Source: an uncultured Bacilli bacterium (lineage in GTDB: Bacteria; Bacillota_I; Bacilli_A; RF39; UBA660). From it: DNA of 33,186 bases. The DNA is taken from NCBI GenBank assembly GCA_947629075.1, contig CANRCI010000003.1, forward strand, positions 1-33,186, in the 5' to 3' direction. The translations under genes and the position numbers were made by a program. Positions 6,590 through 32,266 of the stretch are shown piece after piece. Positions within the stretch are counted from its first letter, which is position 1. The number at the start of each line of letters is the position of its first letter. The notes below the pieces were generated by a model that saw only the letters and a list, made by a program, of their open reading frames with translations, was not told where the DNA came from and ran no database searches.

Positions 6590-9019
6590 TTATGTACTCA
6601 AATCTACGTTATCCCACTCTTCATCTAGTATTAACCAATTGAGAGCGCGATGACGTTCTAAGACGATTTCAGAATTGATTATATCACTGATATCTTTAGA
6701 ATTAATTCTAGAATCGATACAATACCAATCATAACGATAAGTTAAATCAGCCAGATCTAGTATTTCATTTATATCACGAGGAGTACATTTAGTAATGAAT
6801 TCACTATAATTCTTGTTGGAAGATATTATTGATGTAAGAGCTTGAGAATCGACTACATCATGAGGATAAGGAATTCTATCAACTAAATTCAAACTCCATA
6901 AAAGGATCAATAATCCTTCGAATTGCCATGATATCTGTACAGCTAAAGATTTATCCATCGTATCGAATAACCTTTTTTCATTAGGAGTTAGATATGCTGT
7001 AACACGGTATGTTGCTAGTAACTTATTAAAGAACTTTTTAGAATCTTTAAGTTGTTTTTTCTTTTTTAAACGAATGACATCACAAGCAAAATTACAACTC
7101 AAACACAACGCAATGGCACGCTTAGCTACTTCATCAACCGTTCGCTTATGACAACTGTAACTACTTTCAATTAGTGGTAATTCCTCTAGATAAGATATTC
7201 CTTGTGATTTAAGTATCTCAATACTGTTTAGTTTTCTCTTTAAGGCTTCTTTAAACGATTCATCACTTTCAATTAAACTTACAGTAGCAAGAGCGTAATC
7301 AGCATAAGCAAGATTCATATTACTCAAAACGGAAGATACAGCAATTAAGTATCCTTCAATGTAAGAGACTTTATATATTCGCTCATTATCTAAGACATAA
7401 GTCCTAATAGTACGATCGTTTAACGTCTTTTCATTATAACTCTTTATACCCGTCTGGGAAGAGATAACATTTTTACTCATCCAATCATTTACTTTAATTT
7501 CGTATTCATTATTATTAACACATCTAAAGATAAATACACGATAATTGATATCATCTTTTTCTAAAACATCGAAAACATTGAATTCTCGATCGATTTTAGA
7601 ATCGTTTTCTTTTGGAAAATTAAATTTAAAAATTGGACAGTTCTCAATTATGTGATAGAAAACTTTTACATCACTACTACTAATTTTATTGTAATCTTGT
7701 TCGTGAGTATCGATTATTTCATCTTTTTTATCTTTCTTAGATTTGGTCTTTTTTTTCTTTTTGGCTTCTTTTTCCTCTTCATCAAAAGTTGTAATTTCTG
7801 GATTGACATCTATTTTTACTGGTTTAGGTTTTGACATATCTAAAACATCAGCAATATCCATTTGCATCTTCAGAAGAGAGTCTTCCTCTAACTCTGGTTT
7901 TGGTGTATCATCAACAATATTTATAATTGGTTCCTCTACTTCTTCAATAACCGATATTTTTTCCTCAACTGGTTTGAATTCAGAAGATCCATCTATATTT
8001 TTAAAATCTAATTTATAAGGGAAAATGTCATAATCAGATAGATCGTTTTCAATCTTACCATCGATTAAGTCAAATATTTCCACAAAGATCATCTGTAGAG
8101 TATGTTCATCGAGATTATCTTTACTCAAATCGATTAAAAGGTAATTGTCATCAACCCTAGTAAGAATCAAATCTTTTTTATTAAATGGTAGATTACCATG
8201 GTCCATGATCGATAGATTAGCCAAATTAGAACTGATACAATTCTTAACACGATTTGCTAAATTATACGATTTTTCAATAATTCTTAAATCGCTATTGAGA
8301 ATCTCAAAATATATTTCATCATTAATAATTGATAGATGAGCATCTTTATATTCATATTTAAAATAGAATTTTGGAACTTTAATATTTCGATAACTACTTT
8401 CCTGTTCAATCATTTTTTGAGCAGTATTTTTAACAATTTCTGGTTTAGCTTTAGTATCTATCACTGTCTTTTTCTCTGGTATTTCTTCAGTTGGAATATC
8501 GATTTTAGTTTTCTGTGGTGGATTGACTGGCTTAAATACTTGTAGCGAATTTAAAATTTCATTCATAATTATTACATTTTTATCTTTTCGCAACTGTTTT
8601 GCATTAAATACTCTATCTGCCGTATCTAAGTTAATGGTGAAGTTAATAATCATACCATTTATTAAAACGAAGGACTGTAATAATTTCTTAAAATCTTTTT
8701 CTAATACTACTTGTTTTACATCTAATTCTTTAATTAAATAATCTTCATCAAAGATGACTTTAACATCATCTGGTAATCGCTTGATATTAGCGTGATAATT
8801 TGAATCAAAATTCTTATCACTGGCAAAACCAACAAACATAATACTTAAGGTTGTAAGGTTGTCGATGTTGAACAAATATAATGTATTACTGTTGATATTT
8901 AATTTTTTATATTCACTTCTTTTTACTTGAATCCATTTTGGTGATGCTTTGAACTTAAATCCAATATTTTTAGATCTAATATCAACGTATACTTCTTTTT
9001 CTTCTTTCTTTCTATTCAT
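6590..9019 (-). CDS. Large protein with a C-terminal DUF4272-like domain
   Basis: The C-terminal ~215 aa contain EGLLILLWSL, EILDLADLTYRYDWYCIDSR and IVLERHRALNWL...WDNVDLST. The N-terminal ~590 aa are unassigned. ATG 9019 overlaps the upstream stop (ORF-track start 9028). Confidence 0.75.
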   Translation of the reverse strand: MNRKKEEKEVYVDIRSKNIGFKFKASPKWIQVKRSEYKKLNINSNTLYLFNIDNLTTLSIMFVGFASDKNFDSNYHANIKRLPDDVKVIFDEDYLIKELDVKQVVLEKDFKKLLQSFVLINGMIINFTINLDTADRVFNAKQLRKDKNVIIMNEILNSLQVFKPVNPPQKTKIDIPTEEIPEKKTVIDTKAKPEIVKNTAQKMIEQESSYRNIKVPKFYFKYEYKDAHLSIINDEIYFEILNSDLRIIEKSYNLANRVKNCISSNLANLSIMDHGNLPFNKKDLILTRVDDNYLLIDLSKDNLDEHTLQMIFVEIFDLIDGKIENDLSDYDIFPYKLDFKNIDGSSEFKPVEEKISVIEEVEEPIINIVDDTPKPELEEDSLLKMQMDIADVLDMSKPKPVKIDVNPEITTFDEEEKEAKKKKKTKSKKDKKDEIIDTHEQDYNKISSSDVKVFYHIIENCPIFKFNFPKENDSKIDREFNVFDVLEKDDINYRVFIFRCVNNNEYEIKVNDWMSKNVISSQTGIKSYNEKTLNDRTIRTYVLDNERIYKVSYIEGYLIAVSSVLSNMNLAYADYALATVSLIESDESFKEALKRKLNSIEILKSQGISYLEELPLIESSYSCHKRTVDEVAKRAIALCLSCNFACDVIRLKKKKQLKDSKKFFNKLLATYRVTAYLTPNEKRLFDTMDKSLAVQISWQFEGLLILLWSLNLVDRIPYPHDVVDSQALTSIISSNKNYSEFITKCTPRDINEILDLADLTYRYDWYCIDSRINSKDISDIINSEIVLERHRALNWLILDEEWDNVDLST

Positions 9020-11435
9020 AGCTATCACCCATCCTTATATCTTCTAATTCAAAATATTCTGAATATATTGGGTATTTCAATTCACCAACGCGGTACTTTT
9101 CACGGAGATTAGTTTCGTATTCGCGGAAGTTAGCATACTCTTTGATACCCCTTCTACAAATTTTAGAGATAAGAAGTGCTAAATCTTCTTCACTAACACC
9201 GATTAAGATAGCCTTTTCAATCTTGTATTTAGCATTTTCTCCAACATATGGATTATGTTTATAAACCAAAGATAGATATTGTAAACACAATTCCAAATTC
9301 TTGGTTCCTTCTTTATCCAAATCTTTAAACAGATTGTATTCGTTAAGAATTTTCTTTAAATAATCGTAAAAAGCACTTTCTTGTAATTTTTCATTTAAAT
9401 CTTCTAGATAGTTTTTTAAGAAAGCATCTTTGGCAAAATAGTTATGAGATCCAAAAATATATCTTGGATAATCTAACCAATTGGAATCAACTAACCCTCT
9501 AACAAAGTTAATTTTTTCTAAAAAGTCTTTCTTATCTTCATATGAAGGAAGAGTATCTTTCTGTTTATAGGCATCTTGTAGGACATAATCAGTTACGAAT
9601 TCTTCGTATTTTTCTTTATCATTTTTAATTATTTTATATAATTTATCAAGTGTATCATAATCTTGTTTCTTCATGACTAAATTCAAGAACAACATAATTG
9701 TCTTTTGTAATTCATATTTTTCTAAGTTACCTAGTTGTGGATAATATTTTGTTTTAGATACCAAAGATAAAATGTTATGGTAATCCAATTCACGTAACTC
9801 ACGCTCGAAGGTTGCCTGATTCATTCTGATCGTCCATGTTTCCATCGCGTCATTTTTATGTAATTTAAAAGTATACTCATCATTTAAACCGATAACTATA
9901 TGACTTTCCTTACGTAACTTAGTACCGTTTTCCATATATATATTCGGAGCAGATTTAACAATTAAATCGACACGGTTATGAGTTAAATCGTGAACTAAAA
10001 ACTTAATTTTATCTATTTTTATCTCTTTACCAGGAATTAGACTATAATCATTCAATTCGATTTCAGGGACTTGAATAATGCCAAATGAATCATTTAATTC
10101 ATAATATGGCAAGTGTTCAACAACTAATTTCTGATGATCATTTAAATTTACAACAAAGTTTTCAAAAGTATTGGTAATAGAACTCAATATATCACTTGGA
10201 TAGTAAACAGCTTCTTTCTCGTCAGTTTTTTCTGTGGCTACTTCAATGTCCTCTTCTTCAAAGGTTTTAACTTTTTGGACAACAGGTTGTAATTTTGGTT
10301 TAAAGATGATAATCTTACCATCTTCTTCAGGAACAACTTCTTCTTCATTTAACTTTTCAATTTCCTGTTCAATTAAATTCATTAACTCATCTAATTGCTT
10401 GCGATCGAGATTGTTATCTTTTACTTGGACATTAGGTAGTTTTTGACTATTATTAGATAAATCTAAGAATTCAATCTCTCTGTCAGATTGTTCAATTTTC
10501 TCTAACTTGGCATTTATTTCATCAGTCAACTTTTCTAATTCTTCATTATCTAGAACTTTGTCAACATTTGGATTCTCTGACTCGTAATGAGTCTCTTCAT
10601 CTTTTACTTCTTCTTTTTCTATTTCATCAGATGATTCTTTAACAATGCCCGCACTCAATCTTTCAATTTGACGATCGATATTATCCAAAACTTTATCGAC
10701 ATCAACTTTTTCCTCTTCGACTGGAACCTCAAGCTTTTCTTCTTTAACCGGAATTTCTTCAAATAAGTTTTCTTCATTCGTAGATTGGGTATCTTCTTCT
10801 ACTTTTTCTGAAGTAACTTCTATAGTCTTATCCTCCTCTGGAACATAACCAAACACCTCATCTAGAGAGACAAAACTATTTCCATCATGATCCATAAATT
10901 TATTTTCAAACGGACTAAAAGTAATGTAATCTTCACCTTTAAAAAGAGGAATTAACCCTTTCTTTTTAAATTTTTTACCTTCGATTATTTCTCGATGTGA
11001 TAAAAAATTAACTTGTTTATCAGTAATAAAACATCCATTTGAAGTATAAGATAAAAGCTTCTTCAAATCTTCTTTGACAACGATTCCATAAAAATTCTCT
11101 ACTTGTTCAACATAATAGTTATTAATAGCAATATCTGTTAAGGCATCGTGAACTTCACTATAAGTTAGATTTAAAAGCTCATCTTTAATACGCTTAATCA
11201 ATTCGATATCATCAGTCTTTATATCTTCTTCGACTAGAATAGCAAAAGAAGTACTAGTATCATCAAATTCACTACTTACAAACCAAGATTTTATTTTTTC
11301 TAACTTTTCACTAGGGATTACAAAGTCTGTTGTGCAATTATCCGTCTCAAAAACTAATACACGTCTTTCTTTTGTTACATAAATCTTTTCATTTTCTAAT
11401 TGAATCAACAATAAAAAGTTCTTACTACCGTCCAT
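9012..11435 (-). CDS. Large acidic hypothetical protein with a possible degenerate SMI1/KNR4 (SUKH)-like segment
   Basis: 807-aa ORF with RBS GGGAGG. Residues ~104-195 read VEQVENFYGIVVKEDLKKLLSYTSNG...FLS..EI...GLIPLF...SLDEVF, followed by a Glu-rich linker. Confidence 0.6.
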   Translation of the reverse strand: MDGSKNFLLLIQLENEKIYVTKERRVLVFETDNCTTDFVIPSEKLEKIKSWFVSSEFDDTSTSFAILVEEDIKTDDIELIKRIKDELLNLTYSEVHDALTDIAINNYYVEQVENFYGIVVKEDLKKLLSYTSNGCFITDKQVNFLSHREIIEGKKFKKKGLIPLFKGEDYITFSPFENKFMDHDGNSFVSLDEVFGYVPEEDKTIEVTSEKVEEDTQSTNEENLFEEIPVKEEKLEVPVEEEKVDVDKVLDNIDRQIERLSAGIVKESSDEIEKEEVKDEETHYESENPNVDKVLDNEELEKLTDEINAKLEKIEQSDREIEFLDLSNNSQKLPNVQVKDNNLDRKQLDELMNLIEQEIEKLNEEEVVPEEDGKIIIFKPKLQPVVQKVKTFEEEDIEVATEKTDEKEAVYYPSDILSSITNTFENFVVNLNDHQKLVVEHLPYYELNDSFGIIQVPEIELNDYSLIPGKEIKIDKIKFLVHDLTHNRVDLIVKSAPNIYMENGTKLRKESHIVIGLNDEYTFKLHKNDAMETWTIRMNQATFERELRELDYHNILSLVSKTKYYPQLGNLEKYELQKTIMLFLNLVMKKQDYDTLDKLYKIIKNDKEKYEEFVTDYVLQDAYKQKDTLPSYEDKKDFLEKINFVRGLVDSNWLDYPRYIFGSHNYFAKDAFLKNYLEDLNEKLQESAFYDYLKKILNEYNLFKDLDKEGTKNLELCLQYLSLVYKHNPYVGENAKYKIEKAILIGVSEEDLALLISKICRRGIKEYANFREYETNLREKYRVGELKYPIYSEYFELEDIRMGDSYE

Positions 11436-12208: not shown

Positions 12209-12853
12209 CTATTCATTACACTCTGTGCACATATTCAAAGCTACAAAAACTTCGTCCATGTATTTAGTCAAAGTAGCCTTTAAATCAGTAACTTCATCTT
12301 TCGTCCAGTATTCTTCTGGGCTCTCTTTACCTTTGGTATCTTTTGATGTTTCATAATCGTTACCAATTATTTTTCCATCAACTACAAAGGCAGCATTAGG
12401 AACGTAAATTCTCGGATTTCCTTCTGGATCATATTGTAACTTATCTTTTAATAGTTCAACAATTTTTTTATAAGTATCCGTATTCTTTTCACGATCTTCT
12501 CTAATGTTGTAATAATATATTTTATCAACACCTAGCTCTCTTGCTACTTCGTCGAGATATGGTGCATACGCTTGACACCATTCACATTCTGGAAAACCTA
12601 AGAATACAACCCCAGTACCATTTTCCAAAATTTTAATAATTTCGTCACTTTTCTTATAGACGTACACATTGTTATCAGCCACTTTAGTATACTCTTTTTT
12701 GAACTTTTTAGCTTCTTCACTAATTTCTTCTTTATTATTACCAGTATCTCTTTCTTTCGATTGGTTAGATAAGTAATAAATACCACCAACCACTGATAAT
12801 CCTACTAGCAAAATTCCAATTATAATTATGATTATTCCCGTCTTCTTTTTCAT
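12209..12853 (-). CDS. Membrane-anchored thioredoxin-fold protein
   Basis: N-terminal TM helix, FPECEWC (CxxC) and a YVP cis-Pro-like motif. ATG 12853 follows AGGAG. Confidence 0.75.
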
Positions 12854-12893
12854 TTTAATTCTCCTAACTTCTAAATCATTATAGCACAATTTA

Positions 12894-16915: not shown

Positions 16916-18106
16916 TTACTTAATTAATAATAGTTTTTTGGTTGTTAAACCTACTAAACTGATTAAACTCATTATTGCCATAGCAATGTAAGCAACAATG
17001 CCATCTCCAGTTTGTGGATTTTCAACATTTTCATCATCTGAAGCTTGTGAATTATCAACAGTTGTATCATCTGAAGTATCTTGGTTATTTAGTTCAGCTT
17101 CCATTTTTTCAGCTTCAGCTTTAGTCATAACAGCGTTGTTTGGACCAACTACTAGATTACCTAGATATGCTTCAGCAGGTTTAGTACCTGTAAAGACTGC
17201 TCCTGCTTTGATTTGAATCTCATCACTAGGATTTTCTTCATTCTCGTAAGCTAGAACTGGGTTTTCATTAGTAGCATTAATTTTAGCACCAGAACTGATT
17301 ACAGCTTTTCCTGTTCCTTTAGTATAACCAGGAGTTTTGTTATCGACGATAACTGCTACACCACCTGGAAATTGTACATCGGCATCACCGATTTGAACGG
17401 GATCAGTTCCTGTTGTTGTAATAGTACCACCAGCTAAATTAACTTCTCCAGCACGAGAAACTATACCAACATAACCAGTAAGATTACCATTAGTGATATT
17501 CAATGTACCAGATTGTGGCATATAAACAACTGCTCCACCAGTAGATTCAATTGTACCACCAGAAATGTTGATAGTTGAATTACCAGAATGTGCACCATTA
17601 CCACTAATAGCGTTTTGAGTAGCTGTGATAGTACCACCTTCAAAATTTAATTTTCCATTGTCACCCCAAAGAGCAACACCAGTATCAGCAATGAAGGTAC
17701 CACCCTTAACTGTAAGAGTACCATTTCCATCTATTGCTAGAGCTTGAGTTATTGAACTTCCCTTACCTGAATAAACAACTTTACCTGTACCTACGCTATC
17801 CTTGATTACTAAAGATCCACCATTGCTAACGGTGATAACAGTATTCCCTTCCTCGTTAGTACGAGTAATTGAACCACCATTTAAATCTAGTGTGATGTTC
17901 TTATTATTTACATCAATCATAGCAGTAGTAGTAATTTTGGCATCTTTTGCTAGCGTAATAGTCTCACAACTATTGATTGCTGCAGTTAGCTCTGTATCAT
18001 TTGCAATGCCAGTACACTTTGGTTCATCAGCATATACATTTGGCATAAAAGCCATACTAACAACAAAAGCAGATACTATACCAAGTAGTAAATTTTTCTT
18101 TTTCAT
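16916..18106 (-). CDS. Secreted, cell-wall-anchored beta-helix/adhesin-like protein with an NPQTG sorting signal
   Basis: Signal peptide ending VYA-D; Gly/Thr/Asn-rich motifs ITLDLNG, ISGGTI, GTLNITNG; acidic linker; then ENPQTGD, a hydrophobic helix and KK. ATG 18106 follows AAAGGA. Confidence 0.8.
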   Translation of the reverse strand: MKKKNLLLGIVSAFVVSMAFMPNVYADEPKCTGIANDTELTAAINSCETITLAKDAKITTTAMIDVNNKNITLDLNGGSITRTNEEGNTVITVSNGGSLVIKDSVGTGKVVYSGKGSSITQALAIDGNGTLTVKGGTFIADTGVALWGDNGKLNFEGGTITATQNAISGNGAHSGNSTINISGGTIESTGGAVVYMPQSGTLNITNGNLTGYVGIVSRAGEVNLAGGTITTTGTDPVQIGDADVQFPGGVAVIVDNKTPGYTKGTGKAVISSGAKINATNENPVLAYENEENPSDEIQIKAGAVFTGTKPAEAYLGNLVVGPNNAVMTKAEAEKMEAELNNQDTSDDTTVDNSQASDDENVENPQTGDGIVAYIAMAIMSLISLVGLTTKKLLLIK

Positions 18107-18259
18107 ATTGTATTTGTTCCTTTCCATTTTATAAATTTGTATTATTAAGATTTTTTCCTCAATGATATTATATATATCAAGTGTTTTAAGGCTTTTTTTA
18201 TTTTACGCCATTTACTTACTGAAATACCAAATCGCAAAATCATCTCAATAATTGCCATC

Positions 18260-18406: not shown

Positions 18407-19474
18407 TTAAATTTTTTCATATGTTGCTATATACTTACCTGAAAGAACGCCTGAACCTAACTCATTTGAAACAGCTTTTCTTGAAGATATTAATTCCCAA
18501 CCTACAAATCTATAACCATATTTAGGGGCTGGAGCAGTTACTGTATAGCTAGTAATATCAGCACGTCTACCTATTAATAAAGTAGAAACTTGAGCACCTG
18601 TTCTAGAATTAGTAAATCCTTCACATTTGTTTAAATCACATTCTACTTCAACAAACCAAATGTGTCCACTATCACCACAGTAACTTTCTGTACAATGGAT
18701 TGGCAAACTTTTCTTTGTACTATAGAAATGGAATTCAACTTTTTTCTTTTCAGCTTCTTTTTTTATTTCTTCTTCTTGTTCTTTAGTCTTTTTGTTTATT
18801 TTATCTAAAAGTTCTGGATAATCATTAAGATCATACTTAGGTCCTTGTTCTTCTGATTCTTCTTTTGGCTTTGTAGTTGTATTATTTTTAGTACTAGCTT
18901 GTGATTTATTACTAGTTACATTTGAACTAGATTTAGTAGATTCAGATTCTTTGGTCGATTTAGTAGAAACTGTTTGATTTTGTTTATTTTCATTTTCTTT
19001 TACTTCAGCAGCTTTTTCTTCAATATTTTGTTTATTTTGTTCTTTTTCTTCTACTATTTTACTGGCTGTCTCTACTTTCTTTTCAGCTGATTTTTTTGCT
19101 TCTTCAGCTTTCTCGATTTTTGTTGTTGTAGCATCTATTTTTGCTTGTGCTATTTTTCTTTCTTCAGGTGTTTTGGCTTTCTTTAGTTCAAGGATAGCTT
19201 CTTCTTTCTCTTTAGATGCTTTACTAATCGTTTCTTCTGCTTTTGTTACTTCTTGTTCAGCCTTTTCTTTATCTTCTTTAGCTTCTTTTAATTCTTCTTC
19301 AGCTTGTTCCATTTCTTGATTTATATTTTTTGAATAAGAACTCTTTTGAGTAACTTTAGCAGTATTAATTAGTTGATTATCATACTTAATGTAATTTTTG
19401 GCTAAAACACCTGCACCAGTTACCGCACCAATTGATAGAAAACCTATCATCGTCTTAATTAAAATTTTATTCAT
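18407..19474 (-). CDS. Exported or membrane-anchored coiled-coil protein with a small C-terminal beta domain (InlB B-repeat-like motif)
   Basis: Hydrophobic N-terminus, E/K/A coiled coil, S/T/K linker, and a four-Cys C-terminal domain ending APAPKYGYRFVGWE...YIATYEKI. RBS AAGGAGG. Confidence 0.7.
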   Translation of the reverse strand: MNKILIKTMIGFLSIGAVTGAGVLAKNYIKYDNQLINTAKVTQKSSYSKNINQEMEQAEEELKEAKEDKEKAEQEVTKAEETISKASKEKEEAILELKKAKTPEERKIAQAKIDATTTKIEKAEEAKKSAEKKVETASKIVEEKEQNKQNIEEKAAEVKENENKQNQTVSTKSTKESESTKSSSNVTSNKSQASTKNNTTTKPKEESEEQGPKYDLNDYPELLDKINKKTKEQEEEIKKEAEKKKVEFHFYSTKKSLPIHCTESYCGDSGHIWFVEVECDLNKCEGFTNSRTGAQVSTLLIGRRADITSYTVTAPAPKYGYRFVGWELISSRKAVSNELGSGVLSGKYIATYEKI

Positions 19475-21285: not shown

Positions 21286-21309
21286 AAAAAAAGAAGCCAG
21301 ATAGCTTCT
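21286..21309 (-). terminator. Terminator after the spoVA operon
   Basis: AGAAGC/GCTTCT stem plus a T-tract on the minus strand. Confidence 0.55.
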
Positions 21310-21658
21310 AATTTTTTGGTCTAAATATAAGTGTAAAGATAAATGTAAAGAGAATAGCTGCCGTTATTCCACTTGCTGTTAGGTCGAACATTCCCATCAT
21401 GAGACCGATAAAACCGAACTCGTTAGCTTTAGCTAACGCCCCATGAATTAGGGAATGACCAAAACTTGTAATCGGTACTAAAGCTCCACCACCTACATAA
21501 GCGATAATGGTATCATACCAACTAAAGCAATCGAGAAAAGCTCCTAAAACGACAAACATACTAGTAATATGACCAGGAGTTAATTTGGTATTATCTAAAA
21601 TTATTTGACCCAACAGACATAGTGCACCGCTGAATAAAAATGAATATAGATATATCAC
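21308..21658 (-). CDS. spoVAE: Stage V sporulation protein AE (SpoVAEb-type)
   Basis: Motifs CLLGQIILD.TKLTPGH, GGGALVPITSFGHSL, AGITAAILF...FRPK. GTG start overlaps the spoVAD stop. Confidence 0.93.
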   Translation of the reverse strand: MIYLYSFLFSGALCLLGQIILDNTKLTPGHITSMFVVLGAFLDCFSWYDTIIAYVGGGALVPITSFGHSLIHGALAKANEFGFIGLMMGMFDLTASGITAAILFTFIFTLIFRPKN

Positions 21659-22650
21659 TATACCACCTCCAAACTAATCGCATGGGCAATTGAGTTTATC
21701 GGTTCGTGTTGGTAGACAAAAGTTGGGGAAAATAGTGCTCCGGTTGCTACAATCAATACTCTTTTTAACTGATGTCTTTCCATCAGAGGAAATATGTGTG
21801 AATAATTTACTAAAGCAGTACAAGCTGGACCACTTCCACCAGCCATTACTTCTTCTTGCATTTCTAAATCGTAAAGCATTGTACCAGTATCATCATAATT
21901 ATTACTGATATCTATTTTGTATTCACTGTGCAAGTAATCGATAAGTATTTCTTTACCATATCTTCCTAAATCACCAGTTAAAATCAAATCGTAATAAGAA
22001 GCATCTCTCTTTTTATCTTTTAAGTGTTGATAAATTGTATCTCCTGCTGCTACTGCCATAACAGCTCCCATATTAAAGGGATCAGTTTGATTCATATCCA
22101 TAACTTTACCAATTGTTGACGATTCAACTTTAATTTTACTTTTAGTCGAAGTTAGATAACAACTCGCCCCACCCGTTGCGGTAAAAGTAGCTGTCTTAGG
22201 TTTAGGAGCTCCATATTCAGTAGGATTTCTAAACTGTTTTTCACTAGACATGTTGTGAGAAGAAACTGACACGATACTATTTTTTATCTTACCACTATCT
22301 ATTAGAGATGATGCTAAAATCAATCCCTCAACACTAGTTGCACAAGCTGCATATATTCCTAGAAAAGGAAATTCATACTTTAATGCTGCATAACTAGATG
22401 AAGTAATCTGATTTAGAAGATCACCTGCTATAAACATATCAATGTTTTTCTTATCTTTATTGATTTTGTTTAATAAGATATCAATACTATCCTGCATAAG
22501 TTTAACTTCCGCTTTTTCCCAAGTCTTTTCACCATTATATAAATCTGTATAATAACGATCAAACTTACTACCTAGTGGTCCATCTTTTTCATATGGTCCT
22601 ACGACAGTTGAATAATTATTTATATACACATTATTATAATTAAAAGTCAT
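21658..22650 (-). CDS. spoVAD: Stage V sporulation protein AD (DPA-binding, thiolase-like fold)
   Basis: Motifs GPLG..FD, TWEKAE, AGDLLNQ, EKQFRNPTEYG, NMGAVMA.AA, YDLILTGDLG, GGSG.AC. Confidence 0.96.
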   Translation of the reverse strand: MTFNYNNVYINNYSTVVGPYEKDGPLGSKFDRYYTDLYNGEKTWEKAEVKLMQDSIDILLNKINKDKKNIDMFIAGDLLNQITSSSYAALKYEFPFLGIYAACATSVEGLILASSLIDSGKIKNSIVSVSSHNMSSEKQFRNPTEYGAPKPKTATFTATGGASCYLTSTKSKIKVESSTIGKVMDMNQTDPFNMGAVMAVAAGDTIYQHLKDKKRDASYYDLILTGDLGRYGKEILIDYLHSEYKIDISNNYDDTGTMLYDLEMQEEVMAGGSGPACTALVNYSHIFPLMERHQLKRVLIVATGALFSPTFVYQHEPINSIAHAISLEVV

Positions 22651-23093
22651 TATACCCCTCCTAATAACAAGTATCTAATCATCCCGAAGAACCATGCCGA
22701 AACTACACCATAGAGGATAACTGATCCAGCTAATTTAAATATATTACTTCCAATACCATATATTGGTCCTTCTTTTCTATATTCCATACCACTACTCATC
22801 ATCGAATGAGCGAATCCCGTAATAGGAATAATGAATCCACATTTACCGAATGATACCCATTTATCAAAGAAACCTAAAGCTGTAAACAGGCACGATACAA
22901 ATATTAGAGTTACACTCATAAAGACAGTTGCGTCTTTAGTTGATATATCGAATATATAAGTGTAAAACTCAATTAGGAGTTGTCCTAAAACGCCAATCAT
23001 TCCACCGATCACAAATGCTATAAAAGCATTTTTTAATCTGGGTTCTGTAGGTTTATGGCGATCAACAATTTTTTGATATTCTCTTTTTTCCAT
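22650..23093 (-). CDS. spoVAC: Stage V sporulation protein AC
   Basis: Motifs AFVIGG.IG..GQ, IPITGFAHSM.S..MEYRKEG, FKLAGSVILYG. Confidence 0.95.
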   Translation of the reverse strand: MEKREYQKIVDRHKPTEPRLKNAFIAFVIGGMIGVLGQLLIEFYTYIFDISTKDATVFMSVTLIFVSCLFTALGFFDKWVSFGKCGFIIPITGFAHSMMSSGMEYRKEGPIYGIGSNIFKLAGSVILYGVVSAWFFGMIRYLLLGGV

Positions 23094-23107
23094 ATTATCA
23101 CCACTAA

Positions 23108-23136
23108 TATTGTGATAACTTTTCTATTTTTTATAC
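23108..23136 (-). promoter_or_regulatory. Forespore SigG/SigF-type promoter for spoVA
   Basis: GTATA-N17-CACAATA on the minus strand, within the 44-nt sigF-spoVAC gap. Confidence 0.55.
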
Positions 23137-23137
23137 A

Positions 23138-23797
23138 CTACGATAATAATTTATTTTTTATTTTGTTTTTTATTTTAGTTTCCCGTCTCGATACTTGAAC
23201 TTGATTGATATTTAATTTTTTACTGACTTCACTCTGACTTAAATCATCGTAATAGCGATATTTGATCAAATCTTGTTCTTCTTGTGGTAATGAATCAATT
23301 GCATCTTTTAACATTATTACTTCTTCGTCAAATCCTTTTTCTTCATATTTAATCGAGTCGTATAAATTCATCGTCTTATTTTCATCATCACTCAATTCGT
23401 AATCGAGACTTTTAACATAATCACTAGCTTTAATGGCATCATCAACTTCTTCAATACTTTTACCTAGAGCAAGAGCAATTTCCTCATTAGTTGGTTCACT
23501 CAAAAATTCCTGTTGCAGTTTCTCTTTCATCCTGCGAATATCTCTTCCCAGTTTCAAAGTATCTTTCCCAATCTTTAAAAGTCGGTTTTCCCGAACGTAT
23601 TTTAAGGCTTCACCCATTATGTACAATCTAGCAAAAGTAGAAAACTTGGTATTATATTCTTCTTTATAATTTTCTTTAGCTTTTAAAAGAGCCATGAGCC
23701 CTACTTGTACTAAATCTTCATAATCATTATTGTATGCATATTTATAGACAATACTTGATACATATTTTCGATAACTCTCTATTTCTTCGTTAGTCAT
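23138..23797 (-). CDS. sigF: Forespore sigma factor SigF (N-terminally short)
   Basis: Motifs EDLVQVG..ALLKA, KFSTFA..YIMGE, EPT.EEIA, RYY.DLSQSEV...L.INQVQVSR (QVQ as in SigF). Located between the spoIIAA-like gene and spoVAC; RBS AGGAGG. Confidence 0.85.
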   Translation of the reverse strand: MTNEEIESYRKYVSSIVYKYAYNNDYEDLVQVGLMALLKAKENYKEEYNTKFSTFARLYIMGEALKYVRENRLLKIGKDTLKLGRDIRRMKEKLQQEFLSEPTNEEIALALGKSIEEVDDAIKASDYVKSLDYELSDDENKTMNLYDSIKYEEKGFDEEVIMLKDAIDSLPQEEQDLIKYRYYDDLSQSEVSKKLNINQVQVSRRETKIKNKIKNKLLS

Positions 23798-24140: not shown

Positions 24141-26408
24141 TTATTTTTTATTTCTCTTTTTATTATTTCGTTTTTTACCGTTAGTTTTTTTCTTACCCGT
24201 CTTCTTTTTCTCAATTGTAAGTTCGCGGTAACTAGCAAAGATAATTAAGAATAGTCCTATTACTAATAAGAAAATAGATATTGGGGTTTTTTCTAACCAA
24301 TTATATATATTATATAGAATGTTAACTATTACTAAAGCAATACCTAGTAGGAATAGTTTGTCGTATTTTTTGTTTACAAAACCGAAGAAAGCTACTCCAA
24401 TCGATAGAACAATGGCATAAATAGATAAGTAAAGACTTTGATCAAACATGACAATTAATACGGAAATTAGTGAGCCTGCTACAGCAATATATTGACGATA
24501 GTCTTTGTTCTTGACAAATTTATTAATGACAAATGTTAGATATAAAACTAAAACGGAAAGGAAAAAAGTATTCCATATTTCTGAGTTATAAGCATCGATT
24601 AATGAATAGATAGGTATGGCGATTGCAACTAAAGTTATGTTTTTCTTAGTCTTATCGTCATCGTGATAAAAGACTGATATCATATATAACAATAGAGCAA
24701 TGACATTAGCAACGATATAATTATCATTAGTACTCTCAATGAAGTGTTGATCGATAGCATAACTTCCTAAATAAATCGTAAACAGTAAAATAGCAAAAGC
24801 CACATTAGTAAGTTTAGGATCATCTTTTTTATATATTCCTACTACGTAATAATAACCGATAATAGTTAATATAACTAATAGAATTGCATAAATATTTCCA
24901 AAAGTCGCTACTTTTATGACTGATATCAAAGCTAGAACCAAACTTATATATTTATACATATTGATAAGTTTTTTATTTTTAAATACGCCATAAAGAATAA
25001 CGCTGATTAAGAATAAGATACCGATTAACAATTCATAAAGATCAAATGCAAAATAATTATTGAAGAATAGTAAGAATCCTAAAACGAACATAAATACTTT
25101 AACAGGATGGATATAAGCTTCAAAAGCATACTCATCTAAAGATTCAAAACTCATACATGCCAGACACATAAACATCGATACTACTGAGATAATAATTGGT
25201 AACCAAGTAGGATTGTGTAGTGATAATATAAAAGCAAATAAAGTTAGTATGTCAGCTGTTATAAGTGATGACGTTATCAGTAATTTTCGCTTGTACAATA
25301 GTGCTACTAGATATACGAAAACAGCATAAACCGTTATTCCTAAAGCCCAAAGTTCAATCGAAAAGTTTAACGTTAAAAACAATGGTATGACAAACAAGAA
25401 AGACGCTAGTGGTGCAAAATAATTTAAATCACTATCTTCATTCTTTTTAACCCAACTGTATATCTCATAAACGAATAAAATGGTAAGTATTAATACAGAT
25501 AAATAGTTGTCAAAAAAGAATTGAAAAGTAACAAAACATAACATTGAAATAAGAGTTATTATCTTAGAGAAAGCATAGAGAATTTTACTTCTAAACTTCT
25601 CACTGTAATAAGTAAATTTACCAAGTAAAATAAACAATGGTGCAATGGTAAACAACGTATCTTCAACACTCAAAGCTAAAAAGCGATCCATTTGGAAAAT
25701 AGCAAGTAGTAATAATGTGTACAATATGTATAAAATGTTATCTTTTTCAAAATTGCAATAAGATATGAATGTTAAAAAAGCTGCTAAAAGATAGAAAGAA
25801 ACGTAATAAAAACTGCGACCAGCTCCTAAAAGAGAAAACCAATTGCCAAATATTCCGGCATATCCAGCTGATAGAAAAGCAAACAAGATAAAGATCATTC
25901 CTAATGTCCAAGATACATAAGCACTAGATTTAATTCCTACTCTATTTTTACTAAATCGATATATCGCAAACAGAATAATACTACCTAAAATAAAAATAAA
26001 TATTCGCGATAAATAGTTAACTCTAGCCCAAGACGATGTAGCAAATAAAAACCCAGCTACACTTATTAAAACAATTCCTAATTTTAAGAACATGTCCAAC
26101 TTCTTTATTTCAGGATCTACTTGTTCTTTTTTTACTTTCTTTTTCTTTTTTTCAATATCCGATACAGCCCAAACAGTTAAAATTGATCCCACAATATTAA
26201 AGAGCAACAATACAATAGCAACGCCATACAAAACATTTTCTTTTTTTATCAAAGTCGCATAATTTTCAGAACTAAAATATAATAAAAAGATTGAAACTCC
26301 CGATAAAACAATAGATGGAATAGATACTAAACCAAACAACCCGACTGAAATGAACAAAGCTAAGATGTTACTAATCAAAACAACATCTAGCTTGGACTTT
26401 ACGCTCAC
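24141..26408 (-). CDS. Large polytopic membrane protein (about 20 or more TM segments) of unknown function
   Basis: Continuous hydrophobic segments, FLFATSSW motif and a Lys-rich C-tail. GTG 26408 follows GAGGTG (ORF-track start 26417). Confidence 0.75.
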   Translation of the reverse strand: MSVKSKLDVVLISNILALFISVGLFGLVSIPSIVLSGVSIFLLYFSSENYATLIKKENVLYGVAIVLLLFNIVGSILTVWAVSDIEKKKKKVKKEQVDPEIKKLDMFLKLGIVLISVAGFLFATSSWARVNYLSRIFIFILGSIILFAIYRFSKNRVGIKSSAYVSWTLGMIFILFAFLSAGYAGIFGNWFSLLGAGRSFYYVSFYLLAAFLTFISYCNFEKDNILYILYTLLLLAIFQMDRFLALSVEDTLFTIAPLFILLGKFTYYSEKFRSKILYAFSKIITLISMLCFVTFQFFFDNYLSVLILTILFVYEIYSWVKKNEDSDLNYFAPLASFLFVIPLFLTLNFSIELWALGITVYAVFVYLVALLYKRKLLITSSLITADILTLFAFILSLHNPTWLPIIISVVSMFMCLACMSFESLDEYAFEAYIHPVKVFMFVLGFLLFFNNYFAFDLYELLIGILFLISVILYGVFKNKKLINMYKYISLVLALISVIKVATFGNIYAILLVILTIIGYYYVVGIYKKDDPKLTNVAFAILLFTIYLGSYAIDQHFIESTNDNYIVANVIALLLYMISVFYHDDDKTKKNITLVAIAIPIYSLIDAYNSEIWNTFFLSVLVLYLTFVINKFVKNKDYRQYIAVAGSLISVLIVMFDQSLYLSIYAIVLSIGVAFFGFVNKKYDKLFLLGIALVIVNILYNIYNWLEKTPISIFLLVIGLFLIIFASYRELTIEKKKTGKKKTNGKKRNNKKRNKK

Positions 26409-26465
26409 TATACTCACCTCTATTATAATTTTAACATAAATGAGACAAATAAAAAAGATACTAAA

Positions 26466-30465: not shown

Positions 30466-30747
30466 CTACATTTCTGGTAGATATATCTCTTCTAAAAGCG
30501 ATAAATTAGAACTGATCATATCGATTAAATTTTCGCCATATCTTTCTTTTAAACCATTATATCGCTCGACAAAATTAGGATATTCAACAGAAAACAGTAC
30601 TAGACAATTCTCTATAAGTTCTTCGATAAAAGAACAGTTTTCATCCAATAAGAAAGCAATTATTTTTTTTATATTTTCAACATCTAGGCTAGATATAAAA
30701 CTTTCTTCGTATTTACTTAATAGTTCTTCGACTATCTGCTCGGCCAT
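30466..30747 (-). CDS. Small acidic helical hypothetical protein
   Basis: 93-96 aa ORF overlapping the end of the upstream repeat gene; ATG 30747 follows AAAGGA; a hairpin follows the stop. Confidence 0.65.
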   Translation of the reverse strand: MAEQIVEELLSKYEESFISSLDVENIKKIIAFLLDENCSFIEELIENCLVLFSVEYPNFVERYNGLKERYGENLIDMISSNLSLLEEIYLPEM

Positions 30748-31834
30748 TTTTATCATTTCCTTTTTTATATTTTACCAATTTTTTTAAATCAATACCGTAT
30801 TGTGCTTTCAATCCCTCATTTGAAGTATTGATTATCGGATTTATTTTCCTATCTTTAAAGAAAGGAATTTGATTATCATCCATATATTCAAATAAAGCTC
30901 TTCTCTCATTTGCGTTGAACTGGATAGCAGTTGGGGTTACAAAGTTATCTATACCATACTCTTTGTAGAGTTCAAAAATATTAACTATCGTTTCTAGTTT
31001 TACTCTAAAAATGATTGAGGTAAACAGATGACTGTAACCATCTGCCCAGTATGATAGATTTATTTTCTTACGAATACTTTCAGGTTTGTCTTTCCAAATA
31101 CCTGGTTTAAGAAGGTGCTGGTATTGTTTGTTTTTCCACTCGGGCATCGATAAAATGTTAAATACTTTTTCTTTACTATTACCCCAGATACTACCAGTAA
31201 GTAGATTTTTAAACACCGGATCGTCCCAAACTGATTGTGCTTTTAATATTTCATCCTTTTCCCAACTTTTCTTCATATGCAGTATTTCTACTACATCGCG
31301 GTAGTTACTTTTCCAAATATTTTTTGTCAATAACGGTCTAAATTTAGGATCTTGCCATTCTGGTAGGGATAAAATTTTTTTTACTTCTTCATAACTACAA
31401 CGCCAGATATTAGAACTCAATACCTCTTCAAAATCAGAATCTTCCCATTCTTTCATATGAAGGATTCCATTGACGTCTTCATAATTACTATTCCAAATAT
31501 TGGGTGTCAAAAGCTTTTTAAAACGAAACTCATCCCACTCCTTCATATCCACAATTTTAGAAATATTTTCATAATTGCTATTCCAGATAGTCGGAGTTAA
31601 TAAATTTTTAAACTTTGCATCTTTTAACTTTGCAATCGATAAAACATTTTTTATCTCTTCGTAACTACTGTTCCATATATTACTACTAAGTAAAGCGTTA
31701 AAAGGTTCCTCTTGCAATTCGGACATTGCCATTATTTTAGTTATTTCATCGATACTTCTTTCAAAAAAACGATCATTGATTAAATCGGTTCGGCCATTCA
31801 AAGCTCTAATTTTTTCATCTCTCAACTGATCCAT
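30713..31834 (-). CDS. Trp-rich 30-aa tandem repeat protein
   Basis: Consensus LLTxxIWxSxYExxxxILxMxEWxDxxFxx, with Trp at residues 54, 84, 114, 144, 174, 217 and 247. Confidence 0.85.
   Translation of the reverse strand: MDQLRDEKIRALNGRTDLINDRFFERSIDEITKIMAMSELQEEPFNALLSSNIWNSSYEEIKNVLSIAKLKDAKFKNLLTPTIWNSNYENISKIVDMKEWDEFRFKKLLTPNIWNSNYEDVNGILHMKEWEDSDFEEVLSSNIWRCSYEEVKKILSLPEWQDPKFRPLLTKNIWKSNYRDVVEILHMKKSWEKDEILKAQSVWDDPVFKNLLTGSIWGNSKEKVFNILSMPEWKNKQYQHLLKPGIWKDKPESIRKKINLSYWADGYSHLFTSIIFRVKLETIVNIFELYKEYGIDNFVTPTAIQFNANERRALFEYMDDNQIPFFKDRKINPIINTSNEGLKAQYGIDLKKLVKYKKGNDKNGRADSRRTIK
31004..31783 (-). repeat. Degenerate 90-nt coding tandem repeats (7 clear and about 2 degenerate units)
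   Basis: Recurring TTCRTAAYTRCT(A/G)TTCCANATA-like motif at 90-nt spacing on the plus strand, with one 39-nt insertion. Confidence 0.85.
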
Positions 31835-31852
31835 ACTATCACCTACACTAAA

Positions 31853-31881
31853 ATTTTACTTTGTTTAATTAGTGATGTCAA
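31853..31881 (-). promoter_or_regulatory. SigA promoter of the repeat-protein operon
   Basis: TTGACA-N17-TAAAAT. Confidence 0.7.
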
Positions 31882-31909: not shown

Positions 31910-32266
31910 TTATCTCAATTTTTTCTCTAATAATTCTATTCCTCTTTTAGGGTTAACCATTATCATTTCGTATAAGTGATGATGGTTTCTTATTTCTTTA
32001 ATAAATTCTATTTCGGAATTGGACATTTTGATAGTATAACTATCATGATTATCACTGATAACATATTTATCATTACCTAGGAAATAATCGATGTTGACGT
32101 TGAAGATATTTGATAAATCTAACAAGGTTTCAAGCGACGGAATTCTTGTCCCCTTTTCATAGCAACAAACACTGACCTTCGTTACATTTAACAAATTACC
32201 TAGTTGTTGCTGCGTCATATTTTGATTTTTTCTCAATTCTTTTATACGTTTACCAAGTAAAATCAT
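31910..32266 (-). CDS. XRE/Cro-C1 family HTH transcriptional regulator
   Basis: LGKRIKELRK...MTQQQLG..LNVTKVSVCCYEKGTRIPSLETL. Confidence 0.92.
   Translation of the reverse strand: MILLGKRIKELRKNQNMTQQQLGNLLNVTKVSVCCYEKGTRIPSLETLLDLSNIFNVNIDYFLGNDKYVISDNHDSYTIKMSNSEIEFIKEIRNHHHLYEMIMVNPKRGIELLEKKLR

Follow-up and report, generated by a model that had tools for sequence, protein, structure and literature searches.

Organisation of the locus

The DNA considered here is a stretch of 33,186 nucleotides (nt) from an uncultured Bacilli bacterium (GTDB lineage Bacillota_I; Bacilli_A; RF39; UBA660), comprising positions 1 to 33,186 of contig CANRCI010000003.1 in GenBank assembly GCA_947629075.1, and we refer to the whole of it as the window. 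Close to its end lie two overlapping genes, the first encoding a 373-residue protein composed largely of tryptophan-rich repeats of 30 residues and the second a small, strongly acidic protein that we call the partner. All coordinates given for this gene pair are on the minus strand. The repeat gene occupies 30713..31834 including its stop codon, as defined from the list of open reading frames (ORFs), from homologues and from an AlphaFold2 model. A Shine–Dalgarno-like AGGTGA (31839..31844) is positioned 4 nt 5′ of its ATG, and upstream of this is a sigma-70-type promoter-like site, TTGACA-17 nt-TAAAAT (31853..31881), which agrees with the consensus at 11 of 12 positions. A first-pass annotation of the window, made from the sequence alone, had described this repeat gene correctly together with a near-consensus SigA promoter; the promoter stands as a consensus match only, and promoter-like sites are not enriched across the region (10 found against a mean of 14.8 in shuffles). 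The partner gene had been overlooked.

The partner ORF extends over 30466..30756, overlapping the 3′ end of the repeat gene, and encodes 96 residues when read from its first ATG. The second ATG, at 30747, appears the likelier start: it gives a product of 93 residues, which is the length in the protein-database record, and an AAGGAA located 9 nt upstream fits with it.

The repeat protein begins with a helical cap (residues 1–41, 31712..31834) that was delimited from family alignment A1, from the helices in the model (residues 2–38) and by comparison with longer forms, and that lacks the canonical mTERF-like N-domain found in those forms. It is followed by seven 30-residue Trp repeats (residues 42–264, 31043..31711), delimited by self-correlation, a unit logo and the identities between units, and by a conserved C-terminal module (residues 265–373, 30713..31042), defined by a hidden Markov model (HMM) and alignment. 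A break in register marks a 13-residue insert at about residues 190–202 (31229..31267), in the loop preceding the second tryptophan of unit 5, and relatives P0011, P0012 and P0015 carry inserts in the same loop. The architecture is shared across alignment A1, whose members open with a short helical segment, continue with Trp units numbering from 3 to 7 or more, and close with a conserved C-terminal module of approximately 90 residues. The net charge is +4 for the whole protein, +1 for the repeat region and +5 for the module. No signal peptide or membrane segment is apparent in the sequence, and a cytoplasmic helical solenoid is the best explanation of the protein.

The repeat unit and its variable positions

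The tryptophans of the 373-residue protein are found at positions 54, 84, 100, 114, 130, 144, 160, 174, 191, 203, 217, 233, 247 and 263. They form two series, one in the dipeptide Ile-Trp (IW) at 54, 84, 114, 144 and 174 and then, past the 13-residue insert, at 217 and 247, and another in Glu-Trp (EW) that falls 16 residues after the first, at 100, 130, 160, (191/203), 233 and 263. Self-correlation of the protein using BLOSUM62 gives values of 0.72 at an offset of 30, 0.31 at 60 and 0.09 at 90, compared with a best-offset mean of −0.56 (standard deviation 0.07, maximum −0.33) in 200 shuffled sequences, and the 30-residue period is far above chance. The periodicity, the tryptophan positions and the insert are all as the first-pass annotation had reported them. 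The seven units are 17–60% identical to one another as protein (mean 37%) and 37–67% identical as DNA (mean 53%), and Tandem Repeats Finder detected no DNA-level repeat in the gene; the array is therefore old and diverged, and not the product of recent expansion or slippage.

To describe the unit across the family we collected 312 unique units from 118 proteins, leaving out P0129, an 814-residue protein with 14-residue repeats that was judged a spurious match. The resulting consensus is D-P-K-F-x-x-L-L-T-S-N-I-W-x-S-N-Y-E-x-I-K-x-I-L-x-M-x-E-W-x, in which L7, L8, T9, I12 and W13 are near-invariant and the highest variability occurs at positions 6, 14, 25, 22 and 5. In the window protein the residues on either side of IW are SSN/NSS, TPT/NSN, TPN/NSN, SSN/RCS, TKN/KSN, TGS/GNS and KPG/KDK, exactly as first read, and the variable polar residues that had been pointed out around IW prove to be among the most variable positions family-wide. 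The variation flanking IW is a real feature of the family. Taking positions 11 and 14 as a pair, the frequent classes are NN (39 units), NK (36), TN (26), SN (17), NH (15) and NQ (13), and the strings of such pairs differ between tandem paralogues. These residues may constitute a recognition code.

Fold of the repeat protein

The AlphaFold2 model of the window protein consists of helices throughout, three short ones in each unit (predicted local distance difference test score, pLDDT, 79.5; predicted template-modelling score, pTM, 0.70). We compared this model with 48,161 Protein Data Bank (PDB) representatives using VIA-align, and 11 of the top 12 matches were DNA- or RNA-binding solenoids of the mTERF or transcription activator-like effector (TALE) type, the other being a designed helical repeat. 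These 12 matches span Z 9.1 to 5.2, after which the score falls to Z 3.6; for helical repeats a Z below about 13 may reflect arrangement alone, and membership of the window protein in the mTERF/TALE solenoid fold class is therefore likely, not proven. The highest scores were obtained with MTERF1 (3n6s_A, Z 9.1, 251 residues aligned with a root mean square deviation, rmsd, of 6.3) and BurrH (4cj9_A, Z 9.1), followed by TOD6 (9lcx_A, Z 8.9), a TALE (4hpz_A, Z 8.8), MTERF3 (3m66_A, Z 7.6) and MTERF4 (4fzv_B, Z 6.8). The match to MTERF4 spans the C-terminal module, with an rmsd of 4.1 over 120 residues, and mitoribosomal mTERF chains come after it in the list. A literature search found no paper naming TOD6. 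Leucine-rich repeat (LRR), HEAT and cell-wall-binding folds are absent from the 50 best structural neighbours, as are the corresponding rows from Pfam and NCBIfam at E ≤ 1, absences that do not amount to exclusion.

A more confident model was obtained for P0093, a long relative that has Trp repeats and the C-terminal module in common with the window protein (pLDDT 92.1). This model matches MTERF1 in Foldseek with E 3.5e-4 and probability 1.0, and in VIA-align it gives Z 10.6–11.7 against a TALE, MTERF3, MTERF1 and MTERF4, the mTERF alignments being borne by the N-domain.

The C-terminal module and the acidic partner

The partner encoded in the window has an isoelectric point (pI) of 4.1 and a net charge of −13, and in 14 of the 15 sequences of the partner alignment (A3) the net charge lies between −8 and −13. 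Among relatives, a partner homologue of 85–107 residues was present in the cassette at 15 of the 16 loci examined, the exception being L028, and its ORF usually overlaps the stop codon of the family gene by 4 nt. Where the family gene is in several copies the placing varies: at locus L022 the partner comes after the first gene of a three-gene array, and at L023 it comes after a four-gene array and one extra ORF.

The same association is seen in genomes sampled from the order to which the window belongs. The partner is found in 41 of 201 genomes, and in 29 of the 33 that contain the repeat family; the four family-positive genomes without it are those with the weakest family matches. Of the 31 strong partner matches (E ≤ 1e-19), a count by eye places 29 on the same strand as a family match and no more than about 260 nt downstream of it. 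The partner family comprises 898 clusters at E ≤ 1e-3, and the 120 clusters listed all lack both a Pfam domain and an informative name.

The partner itself resembles part of the mTERF-like N-domain of the long relatives, with a BLASTP match of E 1e-7 to residues 65–129 of P0093 and an hhalign match of E 1.6e-4 and probability 51%. We considered whether it could be an N-domain split off from the repeat gene and rejected this, since a partner also accompanies the long forms in which the N-domain is retained. A mirror-tree comparison of C-terminal modules with partners gave a correlation of r 0.82 over 15 pairs, a value reached by 0 of 2000 permutations; because shared ancestry confounds it, we give it no weight as evidence of contact. 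We infer a joint action of the C-terminal module and the partner.

At locus L026 (G158:C3:54518-55747) an in-frame TAG splits the family gene into a 293-residue repeat part and a 99-residue C-terminal module, which could mean that the gene has decayed into a pseudogene or that it truly exists in two pieces.

Long relatives, fusions and paralogue arrays

Several relatives (P0017, P0018, P0020, P0086, P0093, P0104, P0119 and others) are longer than the window protein by an additional N-terminal domain of approximately 160 residues, after which come 30-residue units of Trp type or of Leu/Phe type and then the same C-terminal module. Pfam gives mTERF matches for 3 of the 21 long relatives scanned, with scores of 17.1, 20.2 and 19.8 bits that fall short of the gathering score of 23.1 bits, and in 2 of the 14 members of alignment A2, again below threshold.

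The C-terminal module is common to long mTERF-like proteins, to a protein bearing an HNH domain and to helicases. The HNH protein, P0103 (648 residues), combines an HNH_5 domain (E 3.2e-8, above the Pfam cut-off) with a sub-threshold mTERF segment, an array of at least seven 30-residue units of Leu type and the module, and has the appearance of a naturally occurring nuclease equipped with a repeat array for DNA targeting. The helicases are proteins of 869–1095 residues in which a ResIII/DEAD helicase is joined to 4–7 HA domains (PF03457). They occur at four loci, at L033:1179-4232, L033:4450-7059, L034:4804-8073, L035:1653-4940, L035:4980-8039 and L036:4805-7897. An HMM of the module that matches the window protein with E 1.8e-32 matches these helicase-HA proteins with E 4e-7 to 5e-10, and the module ends five of the six, L033:4450-7059 having no match to it. 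The same acidic partner gene is present at each of the four loci (L033–L036). The gene directly following that of the 1017-residue protein of L033 and that of the 1095-residue protein of L035 is another gene, not the partner. Longer fused forms of the module were absent among 27 candidates, which is weak evidence. The helicase-HA loci also contain a second, unrelated acidic ORF of 76–87 residues (L033:4242-4472, L035:8052-8285, L034:8066-8329 and L036:7857-8114).

Tandem arrays of 2–4 Trp-repeat paralogues, each of 359–538 residues, are found at loci L022 (G170:C5), L023 (G079:C3) and L024 (G125:C5). The paralogues within these arrays have 7–12 units each and differ in their variable residues. 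At L024 one copy lies with a partner between prfA and a prmC-like methylase gene.

Two further relatives have unusual compositions and may be chimeras of assembly or gene calling: in P0015 the Trp units are joined to a hydrophobic, membrane-like C-terminal half, and in P0012 part of a peptide deformylase (PF01327) is joined to them.

Distribution and genomic setting

Among 2544 candidates of similar length we found 15 homologues of the window protein at E ≤ 1e-3, which are 30–42% identical to it and have no informative names. A search of 1.84 billion proteins gave 170 representatives at the same threshold, one of which (P0129) was set aside as spurious. In the ESM Atlas the best score was 0.80 and all matches were hypothetical proteins. 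The relatives come from metagenome-assembled genomes (MAGs) of gut Bacilli and Clostridia and carry about 3 to 12 units. The 33 family-positive genomes of the order sample all belong to one taxonomic family and are approximately 1.0–1.5 Mb in size, and in a phylum-wide sample none of the 383 scored genomes outside that taxonomic family matches at 1e-5. The source genome (1.18 Mb, 92.6% complete) has a single copy of the repeat gene and no long-form relative. The sequencing runs listed as containing part of this DNA are four DNA runs from one study, with no RNA run among them.

In the window the gene pair is surrounded by same-strand housekeeping genes, in the order sufB, ssb, a helix-turn-helix (HTH) gene of XRE type, the pair, a hexapeptide transferase gene and pdp. 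The HTH gene (31910..32266, minus strand), directly upstream of the pair, encodes a 118-residue HTH_3 repressor. This protein has a sub-threshold resemblance to families of phage repressors and antitoxins (RstR, spr1629 and PADLOC RmrA), and an HTH_3 gene adjoins the cassette at L029 also. The GC content of the cassette is like that of its flanks. Elsewhere the neighbours are different, and include mraZ/mraW/mraY, prfA with a prmC-like methylase gene, uvrC, a U32 peptidase gene, clpB, lspA/rluD and ftsZ; given this variation from relative to relative, the cassette either moves or undergoes gain and loss. At the relatives' loci inspected, no integrase, transposase or repeat boundary was seen. 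In one MAG of an uncultured Bacilli bacterium (L037:1930-2859, minus strand) the pair adjoins a gene whose product looks by eye like RNase HIII.

Comparison with known repeat proteins

The first-pass annotation had compared the units with mTERF repeats as known mainly from eukaryotic organelles. It overlooked a report from 2024 of prokaryotic mTERF-like proteins (pTERFs) (PMC11417379; Nucleic Acids Res 2024;52:10464), described there as tandem-repeat proteins from MAGs of gut Bacillota with 3–11 units of three helices. According to that report pTERF1 and pTERF2 bind double-stranded DNA with nanomolar affinity, pTERF1 recognising ACTNNNAGTC with a dissociation constant (Kd) of 1.87 nM and pTERF2 another motif. 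As these proteins are described, the window protein is like them in being bacterial, in having strictly tandem units whose number, 7, is within the published range, and in having three short helices per unit; also shared are a likely MTERF1-like fold at very low sequence identity and repeat arrangements that vary between members. It differs in that its repeat region lacks the Pfam mTERF motif, such motifs being annotated in pTERF1 (PMC11417379), and in the two invariant or near-invariant tryptophans of each unit. Judged against the published description, a Trp-repeat variant of the pTERF kind is the most likely identity of the window protein.

The words "operon", "adjacent", "genomic context" and "tryptophan" do not occur in the main text of PMC11417379, from which we take it that a partner gene, the C-terminal module and nuclease or helicase fusions are not described in that text. 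The phrase "prokaryotic mTERF-like" was found by literature search only in this paper, and a search for mTERF with Firmicutes, Bacillota or Clostridia gave nothing relevant. What is new here, relative to that main text, is the C-terminal module, the acidic partner, the presence of both on HNH and helicase proteins, and tandem paralogue arrays with varied residues flanking the tryptophan.

With the eukaryotic mTERF proteins (PF02536; MTERF1, MTERF3, MTERF4) the window protein, as modelled, shares a repeat of about 30 residues, made of two short helices and a third that is 3-10-like, and a superhelical solenoid. The mTERF motif signature is given as a proline at position 8 followed by three hydrophobic residues, at 11, 18 and 25 (PMC11417379, quoting Roberti 2009). 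In the window family helix 1 is started by Pro (26% of units) or Ser (64%), at unit position 10. Counted from there, the hydrophobic residues that follow are Trp at +3, in 100% of units, and Ile or Val at +10, in 97%. Position +17 is not hydrophobic, but its neighbours are, with Leu at unit position 24 and Met or Leu at 26. The units of the window protein are strictly tandem and near-regular, whereas those of eukaryotic mTERFs are interspersed and degenerate, and further differences are the lack of a Pfam match, the use of tryptophan as a core residue, the bacterial origin and the possession of a small partner gene.

The TALEs (dHax3, PthXo1, AvrBs3 and BurrH) are likewise tandem helical repeats that form a superhelix, and their structural scores are near those of the mTERFs. 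They have in common with the window protein a unit that opens with L-T-P/S and then runs through a short helix into a polar turn, and a few variable positions within a fixed scaffold. The window unit, however, has 30 residues and three helices, compared with 33–35 residues and two helices in TALEs; there is no sequence similarity, no TAL-effector match was obtained in Pfam, and the window protein has neither a secretion signal nor an activation domain. A base-reading diresidue, which TALE repeats carry at positions 12–13, is only hypothetical in the window protein.

Proposed function and alternatives

The explanation we favour, with a confidence about evenly balanced, is that the window protein, together with its acidic partner, is a solenoid of the pTERF kind that binds DNA sequence-specifically. 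The superhelix would wrap double-stranded DNA and read a short site at roughly one unit per base, specificity coming mainly from the residues that flank the invariant tryptophan (unit positions 11 and 14) and from positions 5–6. The co-translated partner, a small acidic mini-mTERF, would dock on the basic C-terminal module, and from there could cap, dimerise or inhibit the solenoid. In the cell such a protein would most likely be a site-specific regulator or roadblock. This proposal starts from the observed repeat architecture, family, conservation and adjacency of the partner, and portability of module and partner, together with the likely fold class; what we infer from them is that DNA and not RNA is bound, which positions make up the code, that the partner makes physical contact, and what the protein does in the cell.

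A number of observations weigh against DNA binding by a pTERF-like solenoid. The chief one is charge, as the repeat region is near-neutral (net +1) and relatives extend from acidic proteins of pI 5.0 (net −19 and −22) to a pI of 9.05. In addition, mTERF relatives in the structural list (MTERF4 and the mitoribosomal chains) also bind RNA or ribosomes, and the Z scores are in the range where arrangement alone could give a match. Foldseek returned no match to the model of the window protein at E ≤ 1e-3, the weak matches that it listed (E ≥ 0.17) being mTERF proteins and TAL effectors. Searches of Pfam, NCBIfam and PHROGs with the window protein gave nothing above threshold; the top Pfam row was PPR_3 with E 0.16, and mTERF (PF02536) was absent from the Pfam rows even at E ≤ 1. 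Profiles of alignments A1 and A2 found no mTERF among PDB sequences, the best matches being DnaA (E 0.13) and a designed protein (E 0.023). Comparison of the Trp units with the mTERF-like N-domain of relatives in hhalign gave a probability of 1%. No known family lays claim to the window protein in any of the Pfam, NCBIfam, PHROGs and PDB-sequence searches, in agreement with the first-pass annotation. Its suggestion that the protein is mTERF-like is reasonable and draws support from the mTERF and TALE fold neighbours and from the sub-threshold Pfam hits of relatives, but not from profile similarity between the Trp units and the mTERF-like domain.

Several of these observations could be accommodated by an RNA-binding solenoid whose target is rRNA or some other structured RNA and whose role lies in ribosome biogenesis or the processing of RNA, with the partner as an adaptor, in the manner of MTERF4, the mitoribosomal mTERFs and several plant mTERFs. 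The structural neighbours include MTERF4–NSUN4 (4fzv_B, 7o9k_A2) and the mitoribosome chains 6z1p_BY, 7pkt_N and 8a22, the near-neutral charge suits RNA or a protein interface as well as DNA, and the genes next to relatives are often concerned with translation or RNA (prfA/prmC, rluD-like, RNase J, proS and tRNA methyltransferase genes). However, the only bacterial proteins of this kind that were tested, pTERF1 and pTERF2, bind double-stranded DNA at nanomolar affinity (PMC11417379), the flanking genes vary by genome, and both the patchy distribution (33 of 201 genomes in the order, 0 of 383 outside the taxonomic family) and the paralogue arrays are ill-suited to a part in core ribosome assembly. 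We consider RNA binding unlikely.

The patchy presence of the cassette, and its varied insertion sites among housekeeping genes such as mraZ/W/Y, prfA-prmC, uvrC, clpB and ftsZ, could instead be those of a mobile or conflict cassette. The array would then be a fast-evolving target-recognition part, the module and partner a portable pair of antitoxin or inhibitor type that is coupled elsewhere to HNH nuclease or superfamily 2 (SF2) helicase effectors, and the window gene an effector-less or decoy version. Arrays of 2–4 paralogues with differing variable residues, the HNH_5 fusion of P0103 to the same repeats and module, the occurrence of module and partner on ResIII/DEAD helicases with 4–7 HA domains, and the XRE-type gene directly upstream of the pair are all in keeping with this, as is the strong acidity of the partner (net −8 to −13 in 14 of 15 sequences), which is often seen in DNA mimics and antitoxins. 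Set against these, PADLOC gave a single row, a weak match to NsnC (E 8e-4, 17 bits) that we judged to be noise, PHROGs gave no phage family, and Foldseek found no match for the window protein among viral structures at E ≤ 1e-3; the GC content is like that of the flanks, and the loci inspected showed no integrase, transposase or repeat boundaries. A conflict cassette is in our judgement rather improbable, and as it would not preclude DNA binding, the two readings compete only in part.

A protein–protein scaffold with no nucleic-acid ligand, comparable to many HEAT-, ARM- or TPR-like repeats and resembling mTERFs and TALEs only through a common helical arrangement, would agree with Z scores below the level that is safe for helical repeats, with the lack of a sequence-level link between Trp units and mTERF motifs and with the neutral repeat region and acidic relatives, but we hold it to be very doubtful, as 11 of the top 12 structural neighbours are nucleic-acid-binding solenoids with a sharp fall after them and no HEAT, ARM or TPR protein among them, members of the wider family are fused to a nuclease or to helicases, and no signal peptide or membrane segment points to a surface role.

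The favoured DNA-binding solenoid could also be part of something larger, namely undescribed programmable DNA-targeting cassettes. The repeats would provide a scaffold reading one base per unit that is distinct from TALEs and zinc fingers, with its code flanking the tryptophan; the module and partner would form a portable switch, in which the partner is a DNA mimic or a capping subunit, that is also used on HNH nucleases and SF2 helicases; and the whole would diversify as tandem paralogues in small-genome gut Bacillota. We regard this broader proposal as a long shot.

Bacterial mTERF-like solenoids are so far known from the single 2024 paper (PMC11417379). To these the window adds a compact and regular 30-residue Trp-repeat variant, candidate specificity positions, natural paralogue arrays, and an acidic partner with its presumed docking module. 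Should both DNA binding and the code be true, the family would offer a short, new programmable DNA-binding scaffold and a handle on its cellular role; otherwise the gene simply adds another member to a rare and already reported fold class.

Other genes of the window

Five further ORFs on the minus strand have no Pfam match at E ≤ 1e-5: 24141..26417 (758 residues), 9012..11435 (807 residues), 16916..18127 (403 residues), 18407..19474 (355 residues) and 12209..12889 (226 residues). An ORF of 812 residues at 6590..9028 has only a C-terminal DUF4272. The window also contains a group of sporulation genes at 21308..23797 (minus strand), comprising a sigma factor gene, spoVAC, spoVAD and spoVAEB, in a genome of approximately 1.2 Mb.

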